A stretch of DNA of 34,989 nucleotides from contig JBHJHB010000117.1 of NCBI GenBank assembly GCA_050331215.1, forward strand, positions 64,001 to 98,989, in the 5' to 3' direction. How positions within the stretch are numbered: the first letter of the stretch is position 1; each line of letters starts with the position of its first letter. This document shows, in pieces, positions 5,335 through 34,989 of this stretch. The translations under genes and the position numbers were made by a program. The stretch comes from Sandaracinaceae bacterium. Its GTDB lineage: Bacteria; Myxococcota_A; Polyangia; Polyangiales; Sandaracinaceae. Under the pieces are notes generated by a model. The model had not been told where the DNA came from and searched no databases. It worked only from the letters and a program-made list of their open reading frames with translations.

Positions 5335-6279
5335 ATGGCGAGCCGATGGACCCCGGCGGACCTGCCGGACCTGGTGGGGCGGACCGTCTTGATCACCGGA
5401 GCCAACAGCGGCATCGGCTTCGAGGCAGCCGGCCACCTCGCCGGCGCCGGGGCCCACGTCGTGCTGGCCTGCCGGAACGGGGCCAAGGCGCAGACCGCAG
5501 CCGAGCGGATCCGCGGAGCCCACCCCGAGGCGAGGACGGAGGTCCTGCTCCTCGACCTCGCCGACCTCGACGCGGTCCGCCAGGCGGCCGGGCGGTTCGG
5601 CTCGGGCCATGATCGCCTCGACGTCCTCGTCAACAACGCCGGGGTCATGGCGCTCCCCCACCGCACGACGACCGATGGCTTCGAGATGCAGCTCGGGACC
5701 AATCACCTCGGCCACTTCGCGCTGACGGGGCTCCTCCTGCCGTCGCTCCTGGCCGCGGAAGCTCCGCGCGTCGTCACCGTGTCGAGCGGCGCCCATCGCT
5801 TCGGACGCATCGCCTTCGACGACCTCCAGAGCCAGCAGTCCTACTCCCGGTGGGGCGCCTACGGGCAGAGCAAGCTCGCGAACCTGCTGTTCACCCTCGA
5901 GCTCTCACGCCAGGCGGAGGCGGCGGGCACCCCGCTCCGCGCGGTGGCCTGCCACCCCGGCTACTCCGCGACGAACCTGCAGCGCACCGGGCCCCGGATG
6001 GCCGGCCGGGGGCTCGAGGAGGCGCTGTTCCAGCTGACCAACCGCCTCTTCGCGCAGAGCGCGGACCGCGGATCGTGGCCTACCCTATACGCTGCGACGA
6101 TGGACGTGGACAACGGGGCCTACATCGGGCCCGGGGGGCTCCTCGAGGTGGCGGGGCCACCCCAGCGCGTCGGGCGAAGCGAGCGGGCCCGTAACGAGGA
6201 GACGGCCCGGCGCCTATGGAGGGTCAGCGAAGAGCTCACCGGCGTCACCTTCCGCTGGCCGAGGACGGCCCGCGCATGA
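5335..6279 (+). CDS. Short-chain dehydrogenase/reductase (SDR) family oxidoreductase
   Basis: The protein has the TGANSGIG Rossmann motif, an NNAG motif, and a Y...K catalytic pair (YGQSK). This is the typical retinol-dehydrogenase-like SDR architecture. Confidence 0.88.
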
Positions 6280-7932: not shown

Positions 7933-10623
7933 TCAATACTCGACGCGTACGCCGCCCTGGACGAGGAAGGGGCGGTTCGGGCGCGCCCCGAACGGCCGGG
8001 TCGAGACGATCCGCTGCGTGAAGGTCAGGTTCTCGCCCCGGACGTAGACCCGCAGGTTCTCGAAGACCTGCAGGTACACCGTCGCGTCGAGCAGGAAATA
8101 GGGCTGCGTCTTCGTCTCGAGGCCGTCGCCGTCGACGTCGGTCCCATCGCCGATGTCCGACTCCGGGGTGCCCCTCCCCGCCTGCTCCCACATCGACGAC
8201 ACGAAGGACCCGCTGATCGAGGCCCCCGCCCTCTCCCCCTCCACGCCCGCCTGCAGCGTGAGCTGGTGCGGCGGGATGTAGGGGATGCGGTCGCCGACCC
8301 GGAAGTTGCCGAGGAGCGGGTCGCCCGTGTCCTCGGCCGTCCGCAGCTCGGTGAACACGTAGGTGTAGGCGAGGCGGAGGGGAAAGGCGACCGAGCCGAC
8401 CGTCGGCCGGCTGTCCGCGGCCACCTCGGCGCCGAGCACGTTGGCGGCGCCCGCGTTGGTCTGCTGGCCGATCGCATCGTCCGGGCACCCGGTCGCGAAG
8501 CTGCAGATCACGGTCAGGTTGGAGTAGTCGTTGAAGAAGAAGATCGCCGACGCGCGGGTCCGGCTCTCCTCGTGGCGGTAGCGCACGCCCGCCTCGTACA
8601 GCACGGACCGCTCGGGCTCCGCGTCCCCGCCCGTGCTGGGCGCGGCCGGGCTGAAGCCCCGCTGGACCCCGCCCACGAGGGAGAGCCCGTCGATCAGCTC
8701 CCAGGCCGCCGAGATCCCCGGCAGGACGCCGACCTGCTGGTCGTCCCCCTGCGCCCCGGCGAGCCGGTCGAGGAACCGCGTCCAGATCAGCTCGAGGCGG
8801 ATGCCCGGGGTCACGGTCAGGCCTCGCCAGCGGAGCGTCCAGGCGGTGTAGGCGCTCACCGCGAAGGCCTCCGCCGTGTTGTCCGCGGTCTGCCCGAAGG
8901 TGTTGTCCTGCTCCTGGAGCACGCGCTCGTCGTCGAGGAGGAACTCGGCCTGGGTGTGGTCCCGGGTCACCGTGTCCCAGTGGAAGCGCGCCCCGAAGCG
9001 CGCCTGGTGCTCGACCTCCCCCGTGCCGAGGCGGAGCGTGGCGTCGCTCTGGATCCCCTGCGACGCATACCGCCGGCCGTTGTTGCCGATCAGGAGAGGC
9101 CGGGTCGGGTCGGACGAGGTCCCCTCCACGACCCGAAAGAAGGGCTCGTTGGTCGCCGTGTCGGGCCGAAGGAGCACGTCCCGCAGGTCCGCCCCGGCCA
9201 CCCCGTTCACCTTGAACCAGTCCCGGTCGAAGTCGTGGCGATAGGCGGTGGTTCGCAGCTGGAAGCCCTCGCCGACCTCGAGGGTCCAGCGAAGCTGGGC
9301 CTGGGTCCGCCACCAGCGCATGCGGTCGAGGCCGCTCGTCCCGTACCGCCGGTAGGGGCCGTCCCGGAAGTCGCCTTCGGTGAGCCCGAGGTACGTCTCG
9401 TGCGAGCTCTCCAGGGTGAGCCCGAGCCGCGCCTCCAGGGTCTGGTAGACGTTGTCCCCGGTCGCGCCGCGCACGTCCCCGCGCAAGATGATCTCGCCTC
9501 GGTCGAAGCCCGTGCTGCCGTTGCCGCCCGCGGGGAAGTCGAGGTTCTTGAAGCCGTCGCTGTGGAGGTAGAGGCCCTCGACCAGGAAGCCGCCCCACTC
9601 GTTCGAGGTGCCGCCGTAGGCGTGCGCGCGGCCGGTCAGGTAGCTGCCGAGGGAGAGGTCCACGCCCGCGTGCGGCTCCCGCGGGATCGGGCGGCTCCGC
9701 CAGTCGATCGCCCCCGCCACCAGGTACGGCCCGTAGGGCAGCGCGGCCGGGCCCAGGTAGACGTCCATGCCGACCATGCGGCCCAGGAGCGGAAAGAAGT
9801 AGGCGCTCGGGGCGCTGTAGGGGGCAGGGCCGAAGAGCACCCCGTCCTCCATCAAGGTGATCTTGCGGCTCCGCTGCGGGCTCACCCCGCGCATGCCGAT
9901 GTTCGGGCGAAGCCCGAAGCCGTCCTCCATCTGGACGTAGACGCCCGGAACCTGGAGCACCTGGGCGTGGGGGTCGTCGTAGCGGAAGCGCGCCAGCGCC
10001 TCCTCGTCCAGGCGGTAGACGCTCGGACCGAGGGGGTCCGGCTCCTCCGTATCGAGGGCGGCGGCCGCTACGGTGACCGCGACCTCCATGTCCTCGTCCT
10101 CGTCGTCGAGGATCTCGGCGAGCTCCGCGTCCTCGCCGACGCCCTCGGCGTCGCGCGCGGCGCCCTCCGCGTCGCGGTCGGTGCCGTCGTCGGACGGGAG
10201 GTCGCCCAGCACGTCGTCGTCGGAGAGCTCCCCCAGCGCATCGTCACCCGGGCCCGCGGCCTCCCCCGGCGCGTCGTCGCCCGGCGCGTCGCCGTGGGGG
10301 GGCGCGCCCGCCACGTCGCTACCGGGCGCGTCGCCGGGGGGAGGCGCGCCCGGCGCGTCGTCGCCCGGCGCGTCATCGCCCGGGGGCTCGCCCGCCACGT
10401 CGTCGTTCGGGGGCTCGCCCGGCACGTCGTCCGGGCGGTCGGTCTCGGCGCCGCCCCTCGAGCCATCCTCCTCGGCGGGGCCGTCGGGACGGTCGCCCCC
10501 GGCGCGCTCGACGCCCGCGTCAGCGTCGGGCTGACCCAGCGCCCGGGGGGCGGGGAAGCACAGCGCCGGGACGCACAGCGCCGAGACGCACAGCGCCACG
10601 GCCACCGCCCAGCCCCGCAGCAC
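7933..10623 (-). CDS. TonB-dependent outer-membrane receptor with an unusual acidic low-complexity N-terminal extension
   Basis: The plug domain is recognisable (PGVYVQMEDGFGLRPNIGMRGVSPQRSRKITLMEDGVLFGPAPY) and is followed by a long beta-barrel ending ...GGVRVEY. I chose the GTG at 10623 as the start. It gives the signal peptide VLRGWAVAVALCVSALCVPALCFPAPRALG and avoids a 79-bp same-strand overlap with the upstream HTTM gene. The ORF track's ATG at 10725 is the alternative. About 150 aa of D/E/G/P-rich repeats (GDDAPG-like) lie between the signal peptide and the plug. Confidence 0.85.
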   Translation of the reverse strand: MLRGWAVAVALCVSALCVPALCFPAPRALGQPDADAGVERAGGDRPDGPAEEDGSRGGAETDRPDDVPGEPPNDDVAGEPPGDDAPGDDAPGAPPPGDAPGSDVAGAPPHGDAPGDDAPGEAAGPGDDALGELSDDDVLGDLPSDDGTDRDAEGAARDAEGVGEDAELAEILDDEDEDMEVAVTVAAAALDTEEPDPLGPSVYRLDEEALARFRYDDPHAQVLQVPGVYVQMEDGFGLRPNIGMRGVSPQRSRKITLMEDGVLFGPAPYSAPSAYFFPLLGRMVGMDVYLGPAALPYGPYLVAGAIDWRSRPIPREPHAGVDLSLGSYLTGRAHAYGGTSNEWGGFLVEGLYLHSDGFKNLDFPAGGNGSTGFDRGEIILRGDVRGATGDNVYQTLEARLGLTLESSHETYLGLTEGDFRDGPYRRYGTSGLDRMRWWRTQAQLRWTLEVGEGFQLRTTAYRHDFDRDWFKVNGVAGADLRDVLLRPDTATNEPFFRVVEGTSSDPTRPLLIGNNGRRYASQGIQSDATLRLGTGEVEHQARFGARFHWDTVTRDHTQAEFLLDDERVLQEQDNTFGQTADNTAEAFAVSAYTAWTLRWRGLTVTPGIRLELIWTRFLDRLAGAQGDDQQVGVLPGISAAWELIDGLSLVGGVQRGFSPAAPSTGGDAEPERSVLYEAGVRYRHEESRTRASAIFFFNDYSNLTVICSFATGCPDDAIGQQTNAGAANVLGAEVAADSRPTVGSVAFPLRLAYTYVFTELRTAEDTGDPLLGNFRVGDRIPYIPPHQLTLQAGVEGERAGASISGSFVSSMWEQAGRGTPESDIGDGTDVDGDGLETKTQPYFLLDATVYLQVFENLRVYVRGENLTFTQRIVSTRPFGARPNRPFLVQGGVRVEY
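10070..10460. repeat. In-frame imperfect tandem DNA repeats inside the TonB-receptor gene, encoding the acidic DDxPG(E/A)PP low-complexity linker
   Basis: Variants of ggcgcgtcgtcgcccggcgcgtc recur many times on the plus strand. On the minus strand the translation is ...PGDDAPGDDAPGAPPPGDAPGSDVAGAPPHGDAPGDDAPGEAAGPGDD.... A separate 15-bp x3 repeat (gcacagcgccgNgac, about 10557-10605) encodes part of the signal peptide. Confidence 0.7.
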
Positions 10624-10646
10624 CCGCGCCCCGATGCACCTCCGGC

Positions 10647-12050
10647 TCACCGTCGCCCGGTCCTCGCGTAGGCAGGGCGGCCCCCCGCGGGGAGCGGCGG
10701 CCCCTCCGGGGCGGCCGCGATCCACGTGGCCGGCAGCACGGATGGGTGCACCTCGGTCAGGTCCACGTCGGGGTCGATCAGCCGCGCCCGCGGGCGCCCG
10801 TTCAGCGATGCCCAGGCATCCACCCGCACCTCCACGCCCCGCTCGCCCCGGGCCTCGAGGTCCCCCGCGATCCGGTGGGCGAGCTGAACGATCAGGTCCG
10901 GCTGACCGCTCATCTCACGCTCCTGGTGGAGGGTGAGGTACTGGTCGGGGCGCAGGTAGCGCTCCGCCGGGTGGTCGGCGGTCCGCACCCGATAGACCAC
11001 GCTCCCGCTCTTCTGACGCACCATCACGCGCCAGCTGAAGCGCATCCCCTGCTCGTGCCAGAGGACGTCGCCGCCGTAGGCATGAGCGCGGAGCGGGATC
11101 GCGACTTGGAGGCCGGCCCAGAGAGCCAGCGCGAGCACCGCGGGCCGGCGCAGGCGGACGGCCTCGGCGGGCGCGCCGAGGCTCTTGTCCCGTGCCTGCC
11201 GCCAGCCGAAGCGCCGCGCGAGGCTCCGGGGCCAGGAGGGGTCGAAGAACACCAGCGCGAAGCCGCTCATCAACCACGGGAACATGCCGATGTTGAACAG
11301 CACGCCGGTCGCCGCGTGGAAGGCGAGCACGACGGCGAGGGCGAAGGGTCGGGACCTGCGCCAGAGGAGCCAGAGCGGGATGGTCAGGTCGTAGAGGAAG
11401 CCGGCCCAGCTCATCGTCAGGGCGAGCCACGCGTCGTCCATCCACGGGCCGACGACGGCCAGGTCCGACCGGGAGGCGAGCCAGATCCCGAGCGGCTGCC
11501 CGTGGAGCAGCCAGTCCGGCTGCAGCTTGGCCAGCGCGGCGAACACGTACACCACGCCGACCTGGAAGCGCAGCGCCCAGGTCATCCAGGCGGGCAGGGT
11601 CCGCACCCGGATCGACGGCCGGAGCCAGGCGTCCACGGAGCCCGCCCGGTGGAGCGGGAGGACCGCCAGCAGCGCCGCCAGCAGGCTCACCAGCACGTAG
11701 TGGTTGAGGTAGAAGGTGACGTCGAGCAGCTCGACGTACGCGAACACCGCGAGGAACACGACCGTCGCCACCCGGTACAGCGCGCCGACGGCGATGGCGA
11801 GGGCGCTCACCGCGAGCACGGCGAACAGCGCGTAGAGCACGGGCCCGGGCGGGGTGGCGACCCAGTCGAACCCGGGGTAGTGGAAGGCGAAGGTCGGCTC
11901 GAGGTAGAAGGTCTCGACCCAGCCCGACAGCACCGTCCGGGCCACCGCCGCGAGCAGCAGCAGCCCGAAGATCACGCGGAACGCCACGAGGCCCGCGACG
12001 TCCCACGGCTCCTCGAGGCGCCGCCGGATGGCGGCGATGGCGCGAGGCAC
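10647..12050 (-). CDS. HTTM-domain (vitamin K-dependent gamma-carboxylase-like) integral membrane protein
   Basis: The N-terminal half is polytopic and hydrophobic, with the HTTM-type pattern (FRVIFGLLLL..., the W-rich helices WLLHGQPLGIW and MFPWLMSGFALVFFDPSW). A soluble C-terminal domain follows. The start is GTG at 12050, 8 nt after the imelysin stop. Confidence 0.7.
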   Translation of the reverse strand: MPRAIAAIRRRLEEPWDVAGLVAFRVIFGLLLLAAVARTVLSGWVETFYLEPTFAFHYPGFDWVATPPGPVLYALFAVLAVSALAIAVGALYRVATVVFLAVFAYVELLDVTFYLNHYVLVSLLAALLAVLPLHRAGSVDAWLRPSIRVRTLPAWMTWALRFQVGVVYVFAALAKLQPDWLLHGQPLGIWLASRSDLAVVGPWMDDAWLALTMSWAGFLYDLTIPLWLLWRRSRPFALAVVLAFHAATGVLFNIGMFPWLMSGFALVFFDPSWPRSLARRFGWRQARDKSLGAPAEAVRLRRPAVLALALWAGLQVAIPLRAHAYGGDVLWHEQGMRFSWRVMVRQKSGSVVYRVRTADHPAERYLRPDQYLTLHQEREMSGQPDLIVQLAHRIAGDLEARGERGVEVRVDAWASLNGRPRARLIDPDVDLTEVHPSVLPATWIAAAPEGPPLPAGGRPAYARTGRR

Positions 12051-18489: not shown

Positions 18490-18854
18490 GGCTCGATGAA
18501 GGCCTGGCCGTCCTCCTCGACGACGGTGAACGCCCGGATCCCGGTCGGCTTCTTGCCGAGGGCGATCAGCGCGCGGCTCCAGGTCGGCACCTTCACGCCG
18601 ATCACGCCCGGAACCCAATCGAGGTTCTCCCCGGTCTTCAGGTCGTACTTGGAGTTGTGGAGCGGACAGATGATCGCCCCGTCCTCCACCGTCCCGCGAT
18701 CGAGGGGGACCGGGAGGTGAGCGCACCGGTTCTCCACGGCGCAGAGCGTCCCCCCGGCCCGCACCACCAGCGCGGTGGTCCCCGCGACCTTCACCTTGTG
18801 AATGGCGCCCTCGGCGAAGTCCGAGCTGGCCCCGATCGATACGCGATCCGTCAT
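18486..18854 (-). CDS. Rieske (2Fe-2S) domain protein, small ferredoxin-like subunit
   Basis: The protein has the CAHLPVPL ... CPLHNSKY boxes (C-x-H ... C-x-x-H Rieske ligands). The start is chosen at the ATG at 18854 (MTDRVSIG...). The longer ORF to 18932 would overlap the upstream gene. Confidence 0.75.
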   Translation of the reverse strand: MTDRVSIGASSDFAEGAIHKVKVAGTTALVVRAGGTLCAVENRCAHLPVPLDRGTVEDGAIICPLHNSKYDLKTGENLDWVPGVIGVKVPTWSRALIALGKKPTGIRAFTVVEEDGQAFIEP

Positions 18855-18922
18855 GCGGCAAGGGTGGACCAGCGCGCCCGGGTGCCACAAGGGGGCTCGC
18901 GCCGGGGCGGCGCCGGCCGCCG

Positions 18923-20074
18923 TCACCCCCACAGCTCGTCGTAGCTCGCCCCCCAGCCGAGGACCGCGCGGCGCGCCAGCACGGGGTAGGCGGCGGCGCC
19001 CAGGACCTGGTGGACGCGGTGGGCGAGCCGGCTGTCCATCCGCTCGAGCGGCACCCCGTGCCCCTGGAGCCGGAAAGCCGAGAAGCCCGGCTGGTCCGCG
19101 AACAGGACCCGGAGGCCCGTGACCTCGCGGCGCCTCATCAGCGCCCCAGCGATCGCCTTGCCGGGGCTGAGGCCGAACCCGGTCGCGATGCTCGACGCGA
19201 CGCCGAGGGTGCTCATCGCCGCCCCGACCAGGTCCCGCCGGGGGTCGAGGCGAAAGTCGAGCATCTCCACGCCGGGCTGGGGCTGCTGGTGTGAGGTCGG
19301 CGCGCCGAAGATCCGGACCAGGGTGTGGCCGAGGTCGTGGGCGGACATCGGGCTCATCCAGCGGTCGTCGCGCATGCCCGGCCCGCCGAGGCGGATCCGA
19401 TGGGCGAGCACGACGCGGCCGACGAAGTCCCGACCCGCCGCGGCGGCGAGGCCCCCCTCGGCGGCCGCTCGGGCCAGCTGGGCCAGCATCGACCGCGCCT
19501 CGGGGTCGTCGGACCAGAGGGCGCCGGCCGTGGTCGCCGCCCCCGTCGGGTCCCCGTCCGTCGCCTGAACGAAGGGGGTCGCTGGCTCGGCCCGGGCCTC
19601 CACCGGTACGGCGCCGAGGGCGCGGTAGAACGCGCCGAGCGCCGGCACGGCCTCGGCCACCGTGACGTCCAGGGTGCCGGACGGCCCCTTCAGCACGAGC
19701 TTCCGCGACAGCACGCTGTCCTTCACGTCCACGCCCACGAGGTCCGCGTGGGCGACGGCGCCTCGCGTCCCGTTCAGGGTCAGGGGGCCCGCGATCGACG
19801 ACCAGCCGCTGACGACGGTCCGACGGTCGGTGAGCGCGACCGCGATCCGATGCTCGTTCCCCTTCGGCGTGTCCCGCCAGAGCACCGACGCGAGGACCCG
19901 CTCCCCCGCCAGGTGATCGCGGCCGACCCCGGCCCCCGCAACGGCCTCCGCGCCGGCCCGCGCCGCCCCATCGAACAGCGCCAGCGTGAGCTCCGAGCTG
20001 TCGAACATGCTGGGCCGACGCTCGATCGGCCGGAGCGTGCGGTGCACGAGGGCGCGGAGGGGCGAGTCGCTCAT
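18923..20074 (-). CDS. Hypothetical protein (383 aa), co-oriented with and immediately upstream of the Rieske gene
   Basis: A clean ORF with ATG at 20074. I recognise no motif. Confidence 0.5.
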   Translation of the reverse strand: MSDSPLRALVHRTLRPIERRPSMFDSSELTLALFDGAARAGAEAVAGAGVGRDHLAGERVLASVLWRDTPKGNEHRIAVALTDRRTVVSGWSSIAGPLTLNGTRGAVAHADLVGVDVKDSVLSRKLVLKGPSGTLDVTVAEAVPALGAFYRALGAVPVEARAEPATPFVQATDGDPTGAATTAGALWSDDPEARSMLAQLARAAAEGGLAAAAGRDFVGRVVLAHRIRLGGPGMRDDRWMSPMSAHDLGHTLVRIFGAPTSHQQPQPGVEMLDFRLDPRRDLVGAAMSTLGVASSIATGFGLSPGKAIAGALMRRREVTGLRVLFADQPGFSAFRLQGHGVPLERMDSRLAHRVHQVLGAAAYPVLARRAVLGWGASYDELWG

Positions 20075-32162: not shown

Positions 32163-34526
32163 TCAGAGGAGCTCCTCGCAGCCCGGGAGGATGTAGTCGA
32201 TCCGCTCGAGCTGGCGACAGAGCGCAGCGTCGATCCGTGCCCCCTCCCCCGGCACCACGGGTGCCTCCTCCTCCGTACCGGCCTCGAGCCACGCGCCGCG
32301 GTCCGCCGCCCCGAGGTACTGCCCGATCAGCCCGCGGAGGTAGCGAGTCGCGACCGGGTGGACCGAGCCGTCGTCGATCTGGTTCTGCTCGCCGGGATCG
32401 GCCTGGAGGTTGAACAGCGACCACGTGAGGTTGCCGCGAACGACGAGCTTGAAGCCGGCGCCCGTGACCACTCGCCGGTCGTCGAGCTTGTCGCTGAAGG
32501 CGACCGCGGGCCCGGGCCGCGGCACCCCACGGGCCATCGACAGCAGGCTGCGACCCTCGAAGGCCTCGGGCGCGGCCACGTTGAGGGCCTCGAGGACCGT
32601 CGGGGCGATGTCGAGGGTGCTGACGGTCGGGGCGAGCCGACCCGTCGGGATGACGCCCGGCCACCTCAGCAGCAACGGCACGTGGAGCAGCTCCTGGTAG
32701 ACGCTGTGGCCATGCCCCCAGCTCCCGTGCTCGTGAAACTCTTCCCCGTGGTCGCTCGTGATCACGAAGAGCACCTGCTCCCGGAGGCCGAGCTCGGCGA
32801 GACGCTCGAGGAAGGGCCCGAAGTGCCGGTCGTGGTACGTGATCTCCCCGTCGTGGAGGGCCTCGAGGCGCTCCCGGTCCCGCGGCGTGAAGTAGCCCTC
32901 CCCCTCCGTCTTGGCCTCACCGAGCTGGTGGCCCGTCCGGCGCGGCCGCACCCGGCCCTCGTAGGGCGCGGCGTCGTACAACGCGAGCAGGTCCTCCGGC
33001 GGGTCGTAGGGGACGTGGGGGTCGATCGTCTGGATGTACGCGAAGAACCGCTCCTCCCGATGGGCCTCGATCCACCGCAAGGCCTCACCGAACACACGCT
33101 CCGCTTCTGTCCTCCGCTCCTCGCGAATGTAGTTCGTGTAGTGGTCCCACCCCTGGTCGAAGCCGAAGCGGTCCGACACGTAGCCGTTGGCGATGAAGCT
33201 GCCGGTCGCGAACCCCTCGCCGTCGAGCACCTCGCTCAGCATCAGCACCCGGTCGGGGAGGCGGCTGGTGTCCGATTTGGTCCGGTGGCTCATCGGGCTC
33301 AGGGACGCGAGGACCGAGGCGACCGCCGGCTTCGTCCAGTTCTCCGGCGACTGCGCGCGCTCGAACAGCGCCCCCTCTGCCGCGAAGGCGTCGAGGGCCG
33401 GCGTCTGAACGCGGCTGTCCGGGTTGTAGGCCTGGAGCTTCGACGCCCGGAGCGTGTCGATCAGGAGCAGGATGACGCTCGCCGCCGGCGCCTCGGGTGG
33501 CGGCGGCTCCTCCGCGCGTGGCACGAGCACCGTCGGCGCGGCGAAGGCGCCGCGCCCGGCGCCCTCCACCTCGAGCTCGAGGCGTACGACCTGACCGGCG
33601 AGCTCATCGAGCGGCAGCAGCCGGGGTGACCAGCTCTCCGTCAGCGGCTCGCGGAGGAGCTCCCGCTCCTGCCCTCCCTCCGGCCGAACCCGGATGGCGG
33701 CGCTCAGGCTCGCCCCGCGCACCTTGCCGAGCGACAGCGCGAGGTCCGCGTCTGGCGGGACCTCGAGGTACGAGCGAAGCCGGGTTCCCCCACCGAGGAC
33801 GAGGGCTCGCCGCGCCTCGCCGCCGACCTCCACCTCCCGCACGAGGTCCCGGGCGAGCGGCGCGGGAGGCGGGTCGGCGGGGGGGGCACCGCGGAACGCC
33901 CAGAGCGCGTCCACCTCGCAGGCCACCCCGTCCTGCGCCACGTTCGGGGCGCGCACCCGGACCACGTTCTCGCCGGCGTGGGTCAGCTCGGCCTCGACGG
34001 GGACGTCGACGTCGGTCGGCGCGCCTGCCGCCAGGGTGACCTCCCCGGCCGTCCGGCCGTTCACGTAGACGACCAGACGTCTCGCCTGGACCGGCCGCAG
34101 CCGGAACCGCAGCGTGAGCGGCCCGGCTGCGTCGAGGGTGAGGAACACCCGCGCGTCGGGCCCCATCCGCGTGAAGTCGCGCCCGTCGCTCGCGACGTCG
34201 CGGCCCCAGCCGCTGTGCCAGCGACCCATCGTCGCGTGGTGCCGGGCGGGCGTGCCGAAGTCGATGTACAGGCCACCCCGATCGCCGTCGGCGAGGTGGG
34301 CATGGGCCATCAGGTCGAGGTGAGTGCGGCTCGACGCGAGGGCCTCGCGGACCGGGTCGACCGGCGGCTCGGCGGGCGCCTCCGACCGCTCGACGGCCTC
34401 GGCCGGCTCCGGCTCCGGGGGCGCTGCCGAGGGGGGCTCTGCCGGCTCGCCGCCGCAGGCGGTCAGGCACGCCACGGCGAGGAAGGAGAGGACCGCGGTC
34501 CGGGTCTCGTGCCCGCGTCGCTTCAT
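32163..34526 (-). CDS. Sulfatase-like hydrolase/transferase (alkaline-phosphatase superfamily) lipoprotein with an about 340-aa N-terminal extension
   Basis: The signal and lipobox are MKRRGHETRTAVLSFLAVACLTA|CGG (ATG 34526; the alternative ATG is 34562). The sulfatase-fold core spans ILLLIDTLRASKL...TSDHGEEFHEHGSWGHGHS. I could not find a canonical C/S-x-P-x-R formylglycine motif. Confidence 0.75.
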   Translation of the reverse strand: MKRRGHETRTAVLSFLAVACLTACGGEPAEPPSAAPPEPEPAEAVERSEAPAEPPVDPVREALASSRTHLDLMAHAHLADGDRGGLYIDFGTPARHHATMGRWHSGWGRDVASDGRDFTRMGPDARVFLTLDAAGPLTLRFRLRPVQARRLVVYVNGRTAGEVTLAAGAPTDVDVPVEAELTHAGENVVRVRAPNVAQDGVACEVDALWAFRGAPPADPPPAPLARDLVREVEVGGEARRALVLGGGTRLRSYLEVPPDADLALSLGKVRGASLSAAIRVRPEGGQERELLREPLTESWSPRLLPLDELAGQVVRLELEVEGAGRGAFAAPTVLVPRAEEPPPPEAPAASVILLLIDTLRASKLQAYNPDSRVQTPALDAFAAEGALFERAQSPENWTKPAVASVLASLSPMSHRTKSDTSRLPDRVLMLSEVLDGEGFATGSFIANGYVSDRFGFDQGWDHYTNYIREERRTEAERVFGEALRWIEAHREERFFAYIQTIDPHVPYDPPEDLLALYDAAPYEGRVRPRRTGHQLGEAKTEGEGYFTPRDRERLEALHDGEITYHDRHFGPFLERLAELGLREQVLFVITSDHGEEFHEHGSWGHGHSVYQELLHVPLLLRWPGVIPTGRLAPTVSTLDIAPTVLEALNVAAPEAFEGRSLLSMARGVPRPGPAVAFSDKLDDRRVVTGAGFKLVVRGNLTWSLFNLQADPGEQNQIDDGSVHPVATRYLRGLIGQYLGAADRGAWLEAGTEEEAPVVPGEGARIDAALCRQLERIDYILPGCEELL

Positions 34527-34710
34527 GGCCGCGAAGATGCCGGATGGGATGCGCGTGCGCATCCCGCGAGCCGAAGGATGCGCGCAGACGAGGGATGCTT
34601 CGAGGGCGGCGGATGCGCGCGGGCGGGGTGGCCGCGGGCTCCGTCGCGAGAGTCGAGCCTCAGGAACCGAACGAGCGCCGATGTTCGTACGAGCCGATGT
34701 TCGGGGATTG

Positions 34711-34810
34711 TAAACCGTACTCGATGTTCAGGAACCGTAAACCGTACTAACCGGAAACCGTACTGGTAACCGTACTAACCGGAAACCGGTACTAACCGGA
34801 AACCGTACTG
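34711..34810. repeat. Direct-repeat array: about 7 copies of AACCG(G)TACT, with higher-order unit (T)AACCGGAAACCGTACT, preceded by three GATGTTC copies
   Basis: Read directly from the sequence: ...taaaccgtactcgatgttcaggaaccgtaaaccgtactaaccggaaaccgtactggtaaccgtactaaccggaaaccggtactaaccggaaaccgtactgg. The array is AT-richer than its surroundings and lies 150-280 bp upstream of the sulfatase-like gene start (minus strand). Confidence 0.8.
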
Positions 34811-34989
34811 GGTGAGGTCTTATCGGCCCACACTTATCAGCGGTGAACCCTCGGCGGCCTCTCGTCGGCGGCGGTCCCGCCGCCGTCCGCCGCCACCTCG
34901 CCGATTCCGGGCCCCTGAACCACACCTGAAGCACAGCCTCGGCGTCCGGCATGGCCCGTGCCCCGCGCCGAAGGGTGGGTCACCCCAAC

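Follow-up and report, generated by a model that had tools for sequence, protein, structure and literature searches.

What is a dense block of short direct repeats doing at the edge of a 34,989-nt stretch of Sandaracinaceae DNA (hereafter, the window), upstream of a sulfatase-like lipoprotein gene and in sequence of much lower GC content than its surroundings? A sequence-only reading of the same DNA had offered three kinds of answer, namely, a multimeric binding site for a transcription factor, the iterons of a replication or partition system, or a microsatellite. Through the current analysis, we found that the microsatellite option is the best supported of the three, in the form of a long simple-sequence repeat based on heptamers; the observation itself was largely borne out, while the earlier interpretation survives through that option only, and its iteron and helical-phase arguments do not. 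Our preferred reading, which we hold with moderate confidence, is that slippage produced a small minisatellite beside the sulfatase gene of an uncultured myxobacterium, a composite simple-sequence repeat that is built on heptamers and specific to its lineage. The array is not a replication or partition site, nor is it a conserved control element of the sulfatase gene. The main value of the result is to remove a false lead, that of a hidden replicon or partition site.

Make-up and position of the array

The features to which we refer below are as follows (coordinates are those of the window).

32163-34526, minus strand: sulfatase-family lipoprotein gene, 787 aa (Pfam PF00884, PF16347, PF01663)
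34546-34626: GC-rich repeat set in the interval between array and gene, detected by repeat finding and distinct from the flagged array
34677-34748, plus strand: gene-proximal sub-array (repeat finding, Tandem Repeats Finder period 27, GATGTTC in three copies)
34695-34721: first copy of the 27-nt unit, CGATGTTCGGGGATTGTAAACCGTACT
34722-34748: second copy of the 27-nt unit, CGATGTTCAGGAACCGTAAACCGTACT, with 85% identity to the first
34733-34809, plus strand: distal sub-array of heptamers and nonamers (Tandem Repeats Finder, exact 9-mer positions, direct reading)
34781-34807, plus strand: GGAAAC-N17-CGTA, pointing away from the sulfatase gene (pattern search)
34811-34989: GC-rich right flank of 179 nt, up to the last base of the window; none of the six frames has a coding signature

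The repeat block is visible on direct reading of the sequence at 34677-34809 (it had previously been placed at 34679-34810). It occupies non-coding DNA that separates the sulfatase start codon (ATG at 34526) from the end of the window, its period is no multiple of 3, and it lies 153-284 nt from that ATG on the 5' side, which bears out its reported position upstream of a minus-strand sulfatase-like lipoprotein gene. The 9-mer AACCGTACT is present in five exact copies, at 34713, 34740, 34756, 34768 and 34801, and is confined to the array, with no other copy on either strand of the window at up to 1 mismatch; five copies were matched in none of 100 dinucleotide-preserving shuffles. Two imperfect copies accompany these, AACCGGTACT at 34784 being a variant with a 1-nt insertion (an extra G) and AACCGTA at 34733 a truncated form, and the previous estimate of about seven copies was therefore fair. 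The three copies of GATGTTC that had been reported were also recovered (34680, 34696 and 34723), and GCCGATGTTCG is found twice in the gene-proximal sub-array, at 34677 and 34693, 16 nt apart.

Tandem Repeats Finder described the block as a period of 16 in 5.0 copies (34733-34809, consensus AACCGGAAACCGTACT, score 103, 15% indels) and a period of 27 in 2.0 copies (34695-34748, score 80), with period 7 rows for AACCGTA (4.0 copies) and AACCGGA (3.7 copies). Read along the plus strand, the distal sub-array consists of AACCGTA / AACCGTACT / AACCGGA AACCGTACT / GGT AACCGTACT / AACCGGA AACCGGTACT / AACCGGA AACCGTACT, the four composite units of which are 16, 12, 17 and 16 nt long, respectively. The array is a nested tandem repeat, in which heptamers of the form AACCGKA and the 9-mer AACCGTACT are combined into higher units of 16/17 nt and 27 nt. 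No reverse-strand (inverted) copy of it was found anywhere in the window, and among the non-coding stretches of the 35-kb window and approximately 65 kb of related loci, the array is alone of its kind.

The sequence-only reading had gone further and described the array as regularly phased, with a 16-17-bp higher-order unit suggestive of helical phasing. The unit itself is real, as shown by the Tandem Repeats Finder period of 16 and by the 16/17-nt units. The phasing, on the other hand, is rejected because the spacing is irregular: the 9-mers start 27, 16, 12, 16 and 17 nt apart, the AACCG words follow one another at 20, 7, 9, 7, 12, 9, 7, 10 and 7 nt (sub-unit spacings of 7, 9, 10 and 12), and 16 nt amounts to 1.5 turns of the helix. 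The description of the locus as an AT-rich island likewise holds in part; the GC content of the array (0.50 to 0.54 in 100-nt windows) is indeed lower than that of the whole window (0.73), but at about 50% GC, it is AT-rich only relative to the genome. Several likenesses (GlnR and CpxR boxes, parS, MetJ and omega-protein heptads, and CsrA GGA motifs) were also considered, and none fits the spacings.

A structured RNA, such as a riboswitch or small RNA, was rejected as well. No Rfam family matched at gathering score in the window, where a single chance-level match was obtained at an E value of <10, and RNA folding of the array was no better than that of shuffles on either strand (z = +0.84 and +0.06). 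A consensus scan yielded neither a sigma-70-like promoter nor a terminator, and no tRNA was found in the window.

Chromosomal context, conservation and variability

The window is ordinary Sandaracinaceae chromosome. Its Pfam content comprises GST, SDR, MsrA, EamA, TonB receptor, HTTM, imelysin, MFS, M28 peptidase, Ser/Thr kinase, PP2C, amidohydrolase and sulfatase domains. Elsewhere in the window, a cluster of 15- to 42-nt tandem repeats occurs at 10116-10597, in the 5' part of a TonB-dependent receptor gene (7933-10914, minus strand); presumably, these repeats represent the repetitive, low-complexity N-terminal region of the receptor. The sulfatase product is 100% identical to P0001, which is annotated as 'MAG: sulfatase [Sandaracinaceae bacterium]', and its N-terminus, MKRRGHETRTAVLSFLAVACLTAC, contains a lipobox-like LTAC.

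The locus was compared with four orthologous sulfatase loci on Sandaracinaceae/Myxococcota contigs (L121, L257, L258 and L259; 58 to 60% protein identity). Downstream synteny is common to these loci, the upstream neighbor is different in each, and the intergenic regions are GC-rich. None of the four has a GTACGG/CCGTAC cluster or a comparable array upstream of the sulfatase gene. Instead, CCATCC(T)CC is kept 8 to 16 nt before the ATG in L121, L257 and L259, and in a weaker form in L258. It follows that the array was added in this lineage and is no conserved control element. In the window, the same CATCC/GGATG word has been amplified as GGATGCGC repeats within the GC-rich set at 34546-34626, which begins with a perfect 9+9 palindrome (GGGATGCGC-gt-GCGCATCCC, 34546-34565) and includes further copies in the form of GGATGCGCGC at 34576 and 34611 and GGGATGC at 34592. 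The likelier operator or leader element for the sulfatase gene is this set rather than the flagged array. Other repeats of a simple kind were seen near one of the orthologues; in L258, two genes close to the sulfatase orthologue of another Sandaracinaceae MAG contain very long coding repeats of hexamers, with 41.7 copies of TCGGAA at 9211-9460 and 19 of CCGATT at 18800-19030.

The sulfatase protein cluster has a second member, P0241, which comes from Logan assemblies and differs at 1 residue in 799. From 34878 leftwards, its two contigs, L319 (SRR6462995) and L320 (SRR6462999), do not differ from the window at any base, the whole array included. Because it is identical base for base in two other public assemblies, the array is no assembly artifact. 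The earlier suggestion that strains be compared for copy-number variation accordingly yielded none: copy number is equal in three assemblies, two of them from a strain with one amino acid change in the sulfatase, although these samples may be closely related or come from one site. Moreover, the Logan contigs, which were built with k = 31, cross the array unbroken, and judging from the behavior of such assemblers, an identical second copy in those samples is unlikely.

The window probably ends where the contig does, at 34989, since the contig that encodes P0001 measures 98,989 bp and the 64,000 bp ahead of the window leave 34,989. From the sulfatase start codon to the contig end, the non-coding stretch measures at least 463 nt, which is unusually long. 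The right-hand ends of the three assemblies fall 68 to 179 nt beyond the array, at 34989 for the MAG contig and at 34878 for both Logan contigs. Within the GC-rich right flank, third-position GC is at most 0.76 across all six frames, and the open minus-strand frame gave no NCBIfam family match. The flank contains CTTATC twice (34819 and 34833, 14 nt apart), a 9-bp GC hairpin (CGGCGGCGG-tc-CCGCCGCCG, 34866-34885) and two copies of CCTGAACCACA (34914-34935), and it folds slightly better than shuffles (z = -2.0).

Related arrays and the choice between explanations

How might such an array have arisen? We propose that the seed would have been a word of approximately 50% GC, AACCG(G/T)A, together with a form extended by 2 nt, AACCGTACT, and that this seed may have been copied head to tail by slipped-strand mispairing or by unequal recombination. 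The 7- and 9-mers would have been duplicated first, followed by the 16/17-nt and 27-nt blocks. Such a duplication history would account for the way in which the periods are nested, for the copies with indels and for the low GC content, the last of these being inherited from the seed. Because its copies are interrupted, the array would currently be stable rather than hypermutable. Any effect on the sulfatase gene would presumably be indirect and modest, arising from altered spacing or local DNA properties upstream of the promoter or leader. The simple-sequence class fits best in view of the nested periods, the indel-bearing copies, the absence of the array from orthologous loci, and the lack of an RNA, promoter, origin or partition signature.

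Arrays with similar words were sought in other collections, and what was found bears on the alternatives. An exact 16-mer scan of species genomes gave 120 single matches, approximately what chance predicts for 596 Gb, and only one locus, L057, was informative. In this Gemmatimonadetes MAG, an array at 5599-5687 (period 7, 11.6 copies) is composed of CCGGAAG, CCGGAAA, CCGTACA and CCGTACT and precedes a Kdo-kinase-like gene by 30 to 130 nt. When metagenomes were scanned for three ACCGTACT words, most matches proved to be coding repeats with no relation to the array or satellites of eukaryote type, and the relevant ones were limited to L190, L200, L221 and L228. In L190, AAACCGTACTCCGG (3.4 copies) and CCGGAAG (4.7 copies) on one side and an inverted CCGGAGTACGGYGG (4.7 copies) on the other flank a four-helix-bundle gene of the PF05635/TIGR02436 family, and the L190 14-mer CCGGAAACCGTACT is contained in the 16-mer of the window. 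In L200, L221 and L228, CCGGAGTACGGTG 13-mers abut the contig starts, just upstream of genes.

The word set CCGGAAR plus CCGTACW is common to the window, L057 and L190, and when the arrays are aligned, CCG recurs every 6 to 7 nt in all of them. Furthermore, the gene-sense strand reads TTCCGG/AGTACGG in all six loci with a known downstream gene, including the window, L200, L221 and L228. This likeness is suggestive and no proof of a family, because the searches that found the loci used words taken from the array and because one 13-mer is common to three of them. Pure slippage on a random seed, however, predicts neither the shared words nor the strand bias, and both count against the slippage reading, as does the lack of any copy-number difference among the three assemblies.

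Viral contigs were scanned as well. There were no matches to a 21-mer and none to the CCGGAGTACGG pair; the 41 matches to a mixed-word pattern were all coding or chance, and the 10 matches to three CCGGAAR words came from heptamer-rich phage contigs, with no mixed CCGGAAR/CCGTACW arrays among them. Three phage-like IMG/VR contigs (L260, L261 and L263; 63 to 66% GC) carry many different intergenic heptamer arrays of 3 to 6 copies, with units such as TTTCCGG, ACTCCGC, ATTCCGC, CATCCGC, AGTGCGG and GGTGCAG, and in L261 (7156-7875), inverted multi-arrays are mirrored around a small non-PF05635 ORF. Nothing of relevance to the repeat words themselves came up in a literature search. Another array, unrelated to that of the window, was seen on a 73%-GC metagenome contig (L123:1808-1858 and L125:3976-4044), where the 17-nt unit CATGACCGCACCGTACT is repeated 4 to 5 times between divergent genes for a TetR-family regulator and an MFS-type transporter (roles read from translations) and overlaps the TetR start.

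The alternative that survives best is that a regulator of the sulfatase gene binds the array as a multimeric site, acting either on DNA or, as an RNA-binding protein, on the 5'-UTR, with the CCG-N4 words (TTTCCGG and AGTACGG in the gene sense) as recognition units. We regard this as possible but rather doubtful. A location 153 to 284 nt upstream of the start codon, on its 5' side, would suit such a role, as would a sequence that is invariant in three assemblies, a single strand orientation to the downstream gene in six of six loci, and the recurrence of the word set in two unrelated contigs (L057 and L190), with CCG every 7 nt in the aligned arrays. Against it count the absence of the array from the four orthologous loci and irregular spacings that are no multiple of a helical turn, and no regulator gene adjoins the array within the window. 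The response-regulator boxes that had been envisaged fail on the same grounds when compared with direct repeats of the OmpR/PhoB type, in that the periods (7, 9, 16/17 and 27) include none of 10 to 11 bp and none of the four orthologues has such an array. The resemblance among the related loci is itself partly a matter of ascertainment, since words from the array served to retrieve them; in addition, a single 13-mer is common to three of the six oriented loci, and these three may represent one lineage. Finally, the many different heptamer units found within single genomes (L260 and L263) argue against one sequence-specific binder.

One less likely possibility is that a small cassette or mobile element has the array as one of its arms, its remainder lying beyond the contig end. 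The model for this is a unit consisting of an array, a PF05635 gene and an inverted array; PF05635/TIGR02436 is the Avd-like '23S rRNA intervening sequence protein' family. Such loci were observed at L190:1-650, L311:105-573, L312:3969-4378, L313:3592-4047, L314:1798-2364 and L316:689-1207. In every locus examined, a short tandem array of 6- to 14-nt units stands just upstream of the PF05635 gene, and in most (L190, L311, L312, L314 and L316), there is an inverted downstream partner. The unit differs between cassettes (GTGCCC, TCGAGCR or CCGTACTCCGG). In L311, for example, the gene is preceded by (CCGTGC) x 6.2 and followed by (CGGGCA) x 5.3, and L312 has the same hexamer. In L313-L318, six assemblies that carry the P0122 gene, the upstream CGAGCRT array is present at 5.6, 6.6 or 7.6 copies in different samples and there are two alternative downstream sequences, with (CTCGACT) x 4.7 to 9.6 in only two of the six; this is a real polymorphism between samples, in both copy number and presence or absence. 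Homologues of the L190 protein were found almost exclusively on contigs of 0.5 to 3 kb. That PF05635 genes nearly always sit on short contigs suggests that their flanks break assemblies. A jackhmmer search with the L190 protein against the ORFs of all fetched loci matched only the protein itself, and in the literature searched, no description of array-flanked PF05635 cassettes was found.

Several of these observations would accommodate the window. The L190 gene is bracketed by inverted arrays whose 14-mer lies within the window's 16-mer, the same architecture recurs with other units in L311, L312 and L313-L318, PF05635 genes are almost restricted to very short contigs, and all three assemblies of the locus end 68 to 179 nt to the right of the array. 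In the known cassettes, however, the distance from array to gene is 9 to 62 nt, and the 179 nt available on the right of the window array contain neither a PF05635 gene nor any other gene, coding signature or family match, while on its left lies the sulfatase leader. Moreover, the window holds no inverted partner, the L057 array stands alone without a PF05635 gene, and the unbroken passage of k = 31 Logan contigs through the array implies that there is no identical second copy in those samples, judging from how such assemblers work.

A broader and equally speculative proposition, which we consider improbable, is that CCGGAAR and CCGTACW belong to a cross-phylum "CCG-N4" heptamer family that lies in one orientation upstream of genes and is mechanistically tied to the PF05635 cassettes bracketed by inverted arrays. 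The arrays would then not be slippage products; they would serve a mobile element akin to an intervening sequence as its stems or recognition sequences, or would be the footprints that it leaves. Should the word set and its orientation prove general across unrelated phyla, the finding would matter more than it does at present. For more than 30 years, heptamer repeats between bacterial genes have been recorded with no function assigned to them, and PF05635 is an abundant family of unknown function; the question of heptamer function would become testable with a family of heptamers that has a defined vocabulary, follows a strand rule and is linked to PF05635.

It is very improbable that the repeat serves to create one or more promoters of the ECF-sigma type (GGAAAC-N16/17-CGTA) that fire rightwards into the GC-rich flank or into an unseen gene. 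There is one exact GGAAAC-N17-CGTA, at 34781-34807, against 0.01 expected, and its two halves resemble an ECF-sigma -35/-10 pair; the right flank also folds somewhat better than shuffles (z = -2.0). Yet a match of this kind is automatic in a 16/17-nt repeat that contains both words, and only a single match was obtained. The 13- to 14-nt periods of related arrays cannot give the required spacing, and a transcript that ran rightwards in L057 would be antisense to the end of a gene. The match is probably a by-product of the repeat.

We give almost no credence to the remaining alternative, namely, that a plasmid or integrated element has its replication origin or partition centromere here, with the repeats as its iterons, for which only the general look of dense direct repeats in a lower-GC island beside unexplored sequence could be cited, whereas the gene content is chromosomal and syntenic with other Sandaracinaceae loci, Pfam scans of the window ORFs found no rep or par genes (parA/parB or parR type), the DnaA box TTATCCACA had no match in the window at up to 1 mismatch, the spacing is irregular, the lowest GC content is 0.50 with no truly AT-rich unwinding element, and BLAST against 72,556 plasmids gave only chance matches to the GC-rich right flank (E = 0.03 at best, although low-complexity filtering by BLAST may hide the array itself).

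Comparison with known repeat systems

The short tandemly repeated repetitive (STRR) heptamers of cyanobacteria were reportedly described by Mazel in 1990. According to the summaries of Mrazek 2007 given in PMC4679880 and PMC4692102, heptamers are the commonest unit of long simple-sequence repeats, a class with units of 5 to 11 nt, in bacteria, and slippage, possibly by way of an interaction between polymerase and DNA, has been proposed as the cause. Intergenic heptamer arrays of usually about 4 units are found in Xanthomonas (GGGAATC) and Nostoc (GGGGAYT), in families of about 100 to 190 copies per genome (PMC4692102). TAACTGA repeats are found directly upstream of start codons in marine Beggiatoaceae, cyanobacteria and Bacteroidetes, and for these, a regulator-binding role has been proposed but never shown (PMC4679880). 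In Geobacter metallireducens, four copies of GGACCGG occur at 49 sites and MTYCTGA forms five tandem repeats; their annotation as putative global regulatory elements was based on sequence alone (PMC2700814). None of these catalogued heptamer arrays has a demonstrated function.

Plasmid iterons and partition repeats are, like the window array, direct repeats that cluster where the GC content is lower. They differ in having repeats of approximately 17 to 22 bp at regular spacing and usually in helical phase, in contrast to the 27, 16, 12, 16 and 17 nt of the window, which has a chromosomal context and is without rep or par genes, a DnaA box or 11-/22-bp phasing. The PF05635 cassettes (L190 and L311-L318) share with it the placement of an array beside a contig end and, in L190, a unit (CCGGAAACCGTACT) that lies within that of the window; unlike them, the window has neither a PF05635 gene nor an inverted partner in reach, and its array-to-gene distance is greater.

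Among the heptamer systems, the Geobacter elements come from a lineage of deltaproteobacterial/myxobacterial grade, and the Geobacter heptamer contains CCGG. Unlike the window array, they are short (4 to 5 units), GC-rich and dispersed within and between genes. The TAACTGA and STRR repeats resemble it as direct heptamer repeats upstream of start codons, with one word set in unrelated phyla. TAACTGA, however, lies a few nucleotides from the start codon rather than 153 to 284 nt away, and its unit sequence is unrelated. From the Xanthomonas and Nostoc arrays, the window array differs in three respects: it combines forms of 7 and 9 nt in a higher unit of 16/17 nt, it lacks G-richness and with it any quadruplex potential, and it is alone in the 35 kb examined, as opposed to approximately 100 to 190 copies per genome. 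Repeats of the Xanthomonas/Nostoc type show occasional inverted pairs, have slippage as their proposed origin and have no established function. Like them, the window array is intergenic and consists of head-to-tail 7-nt units with point variants, a handful to the block.
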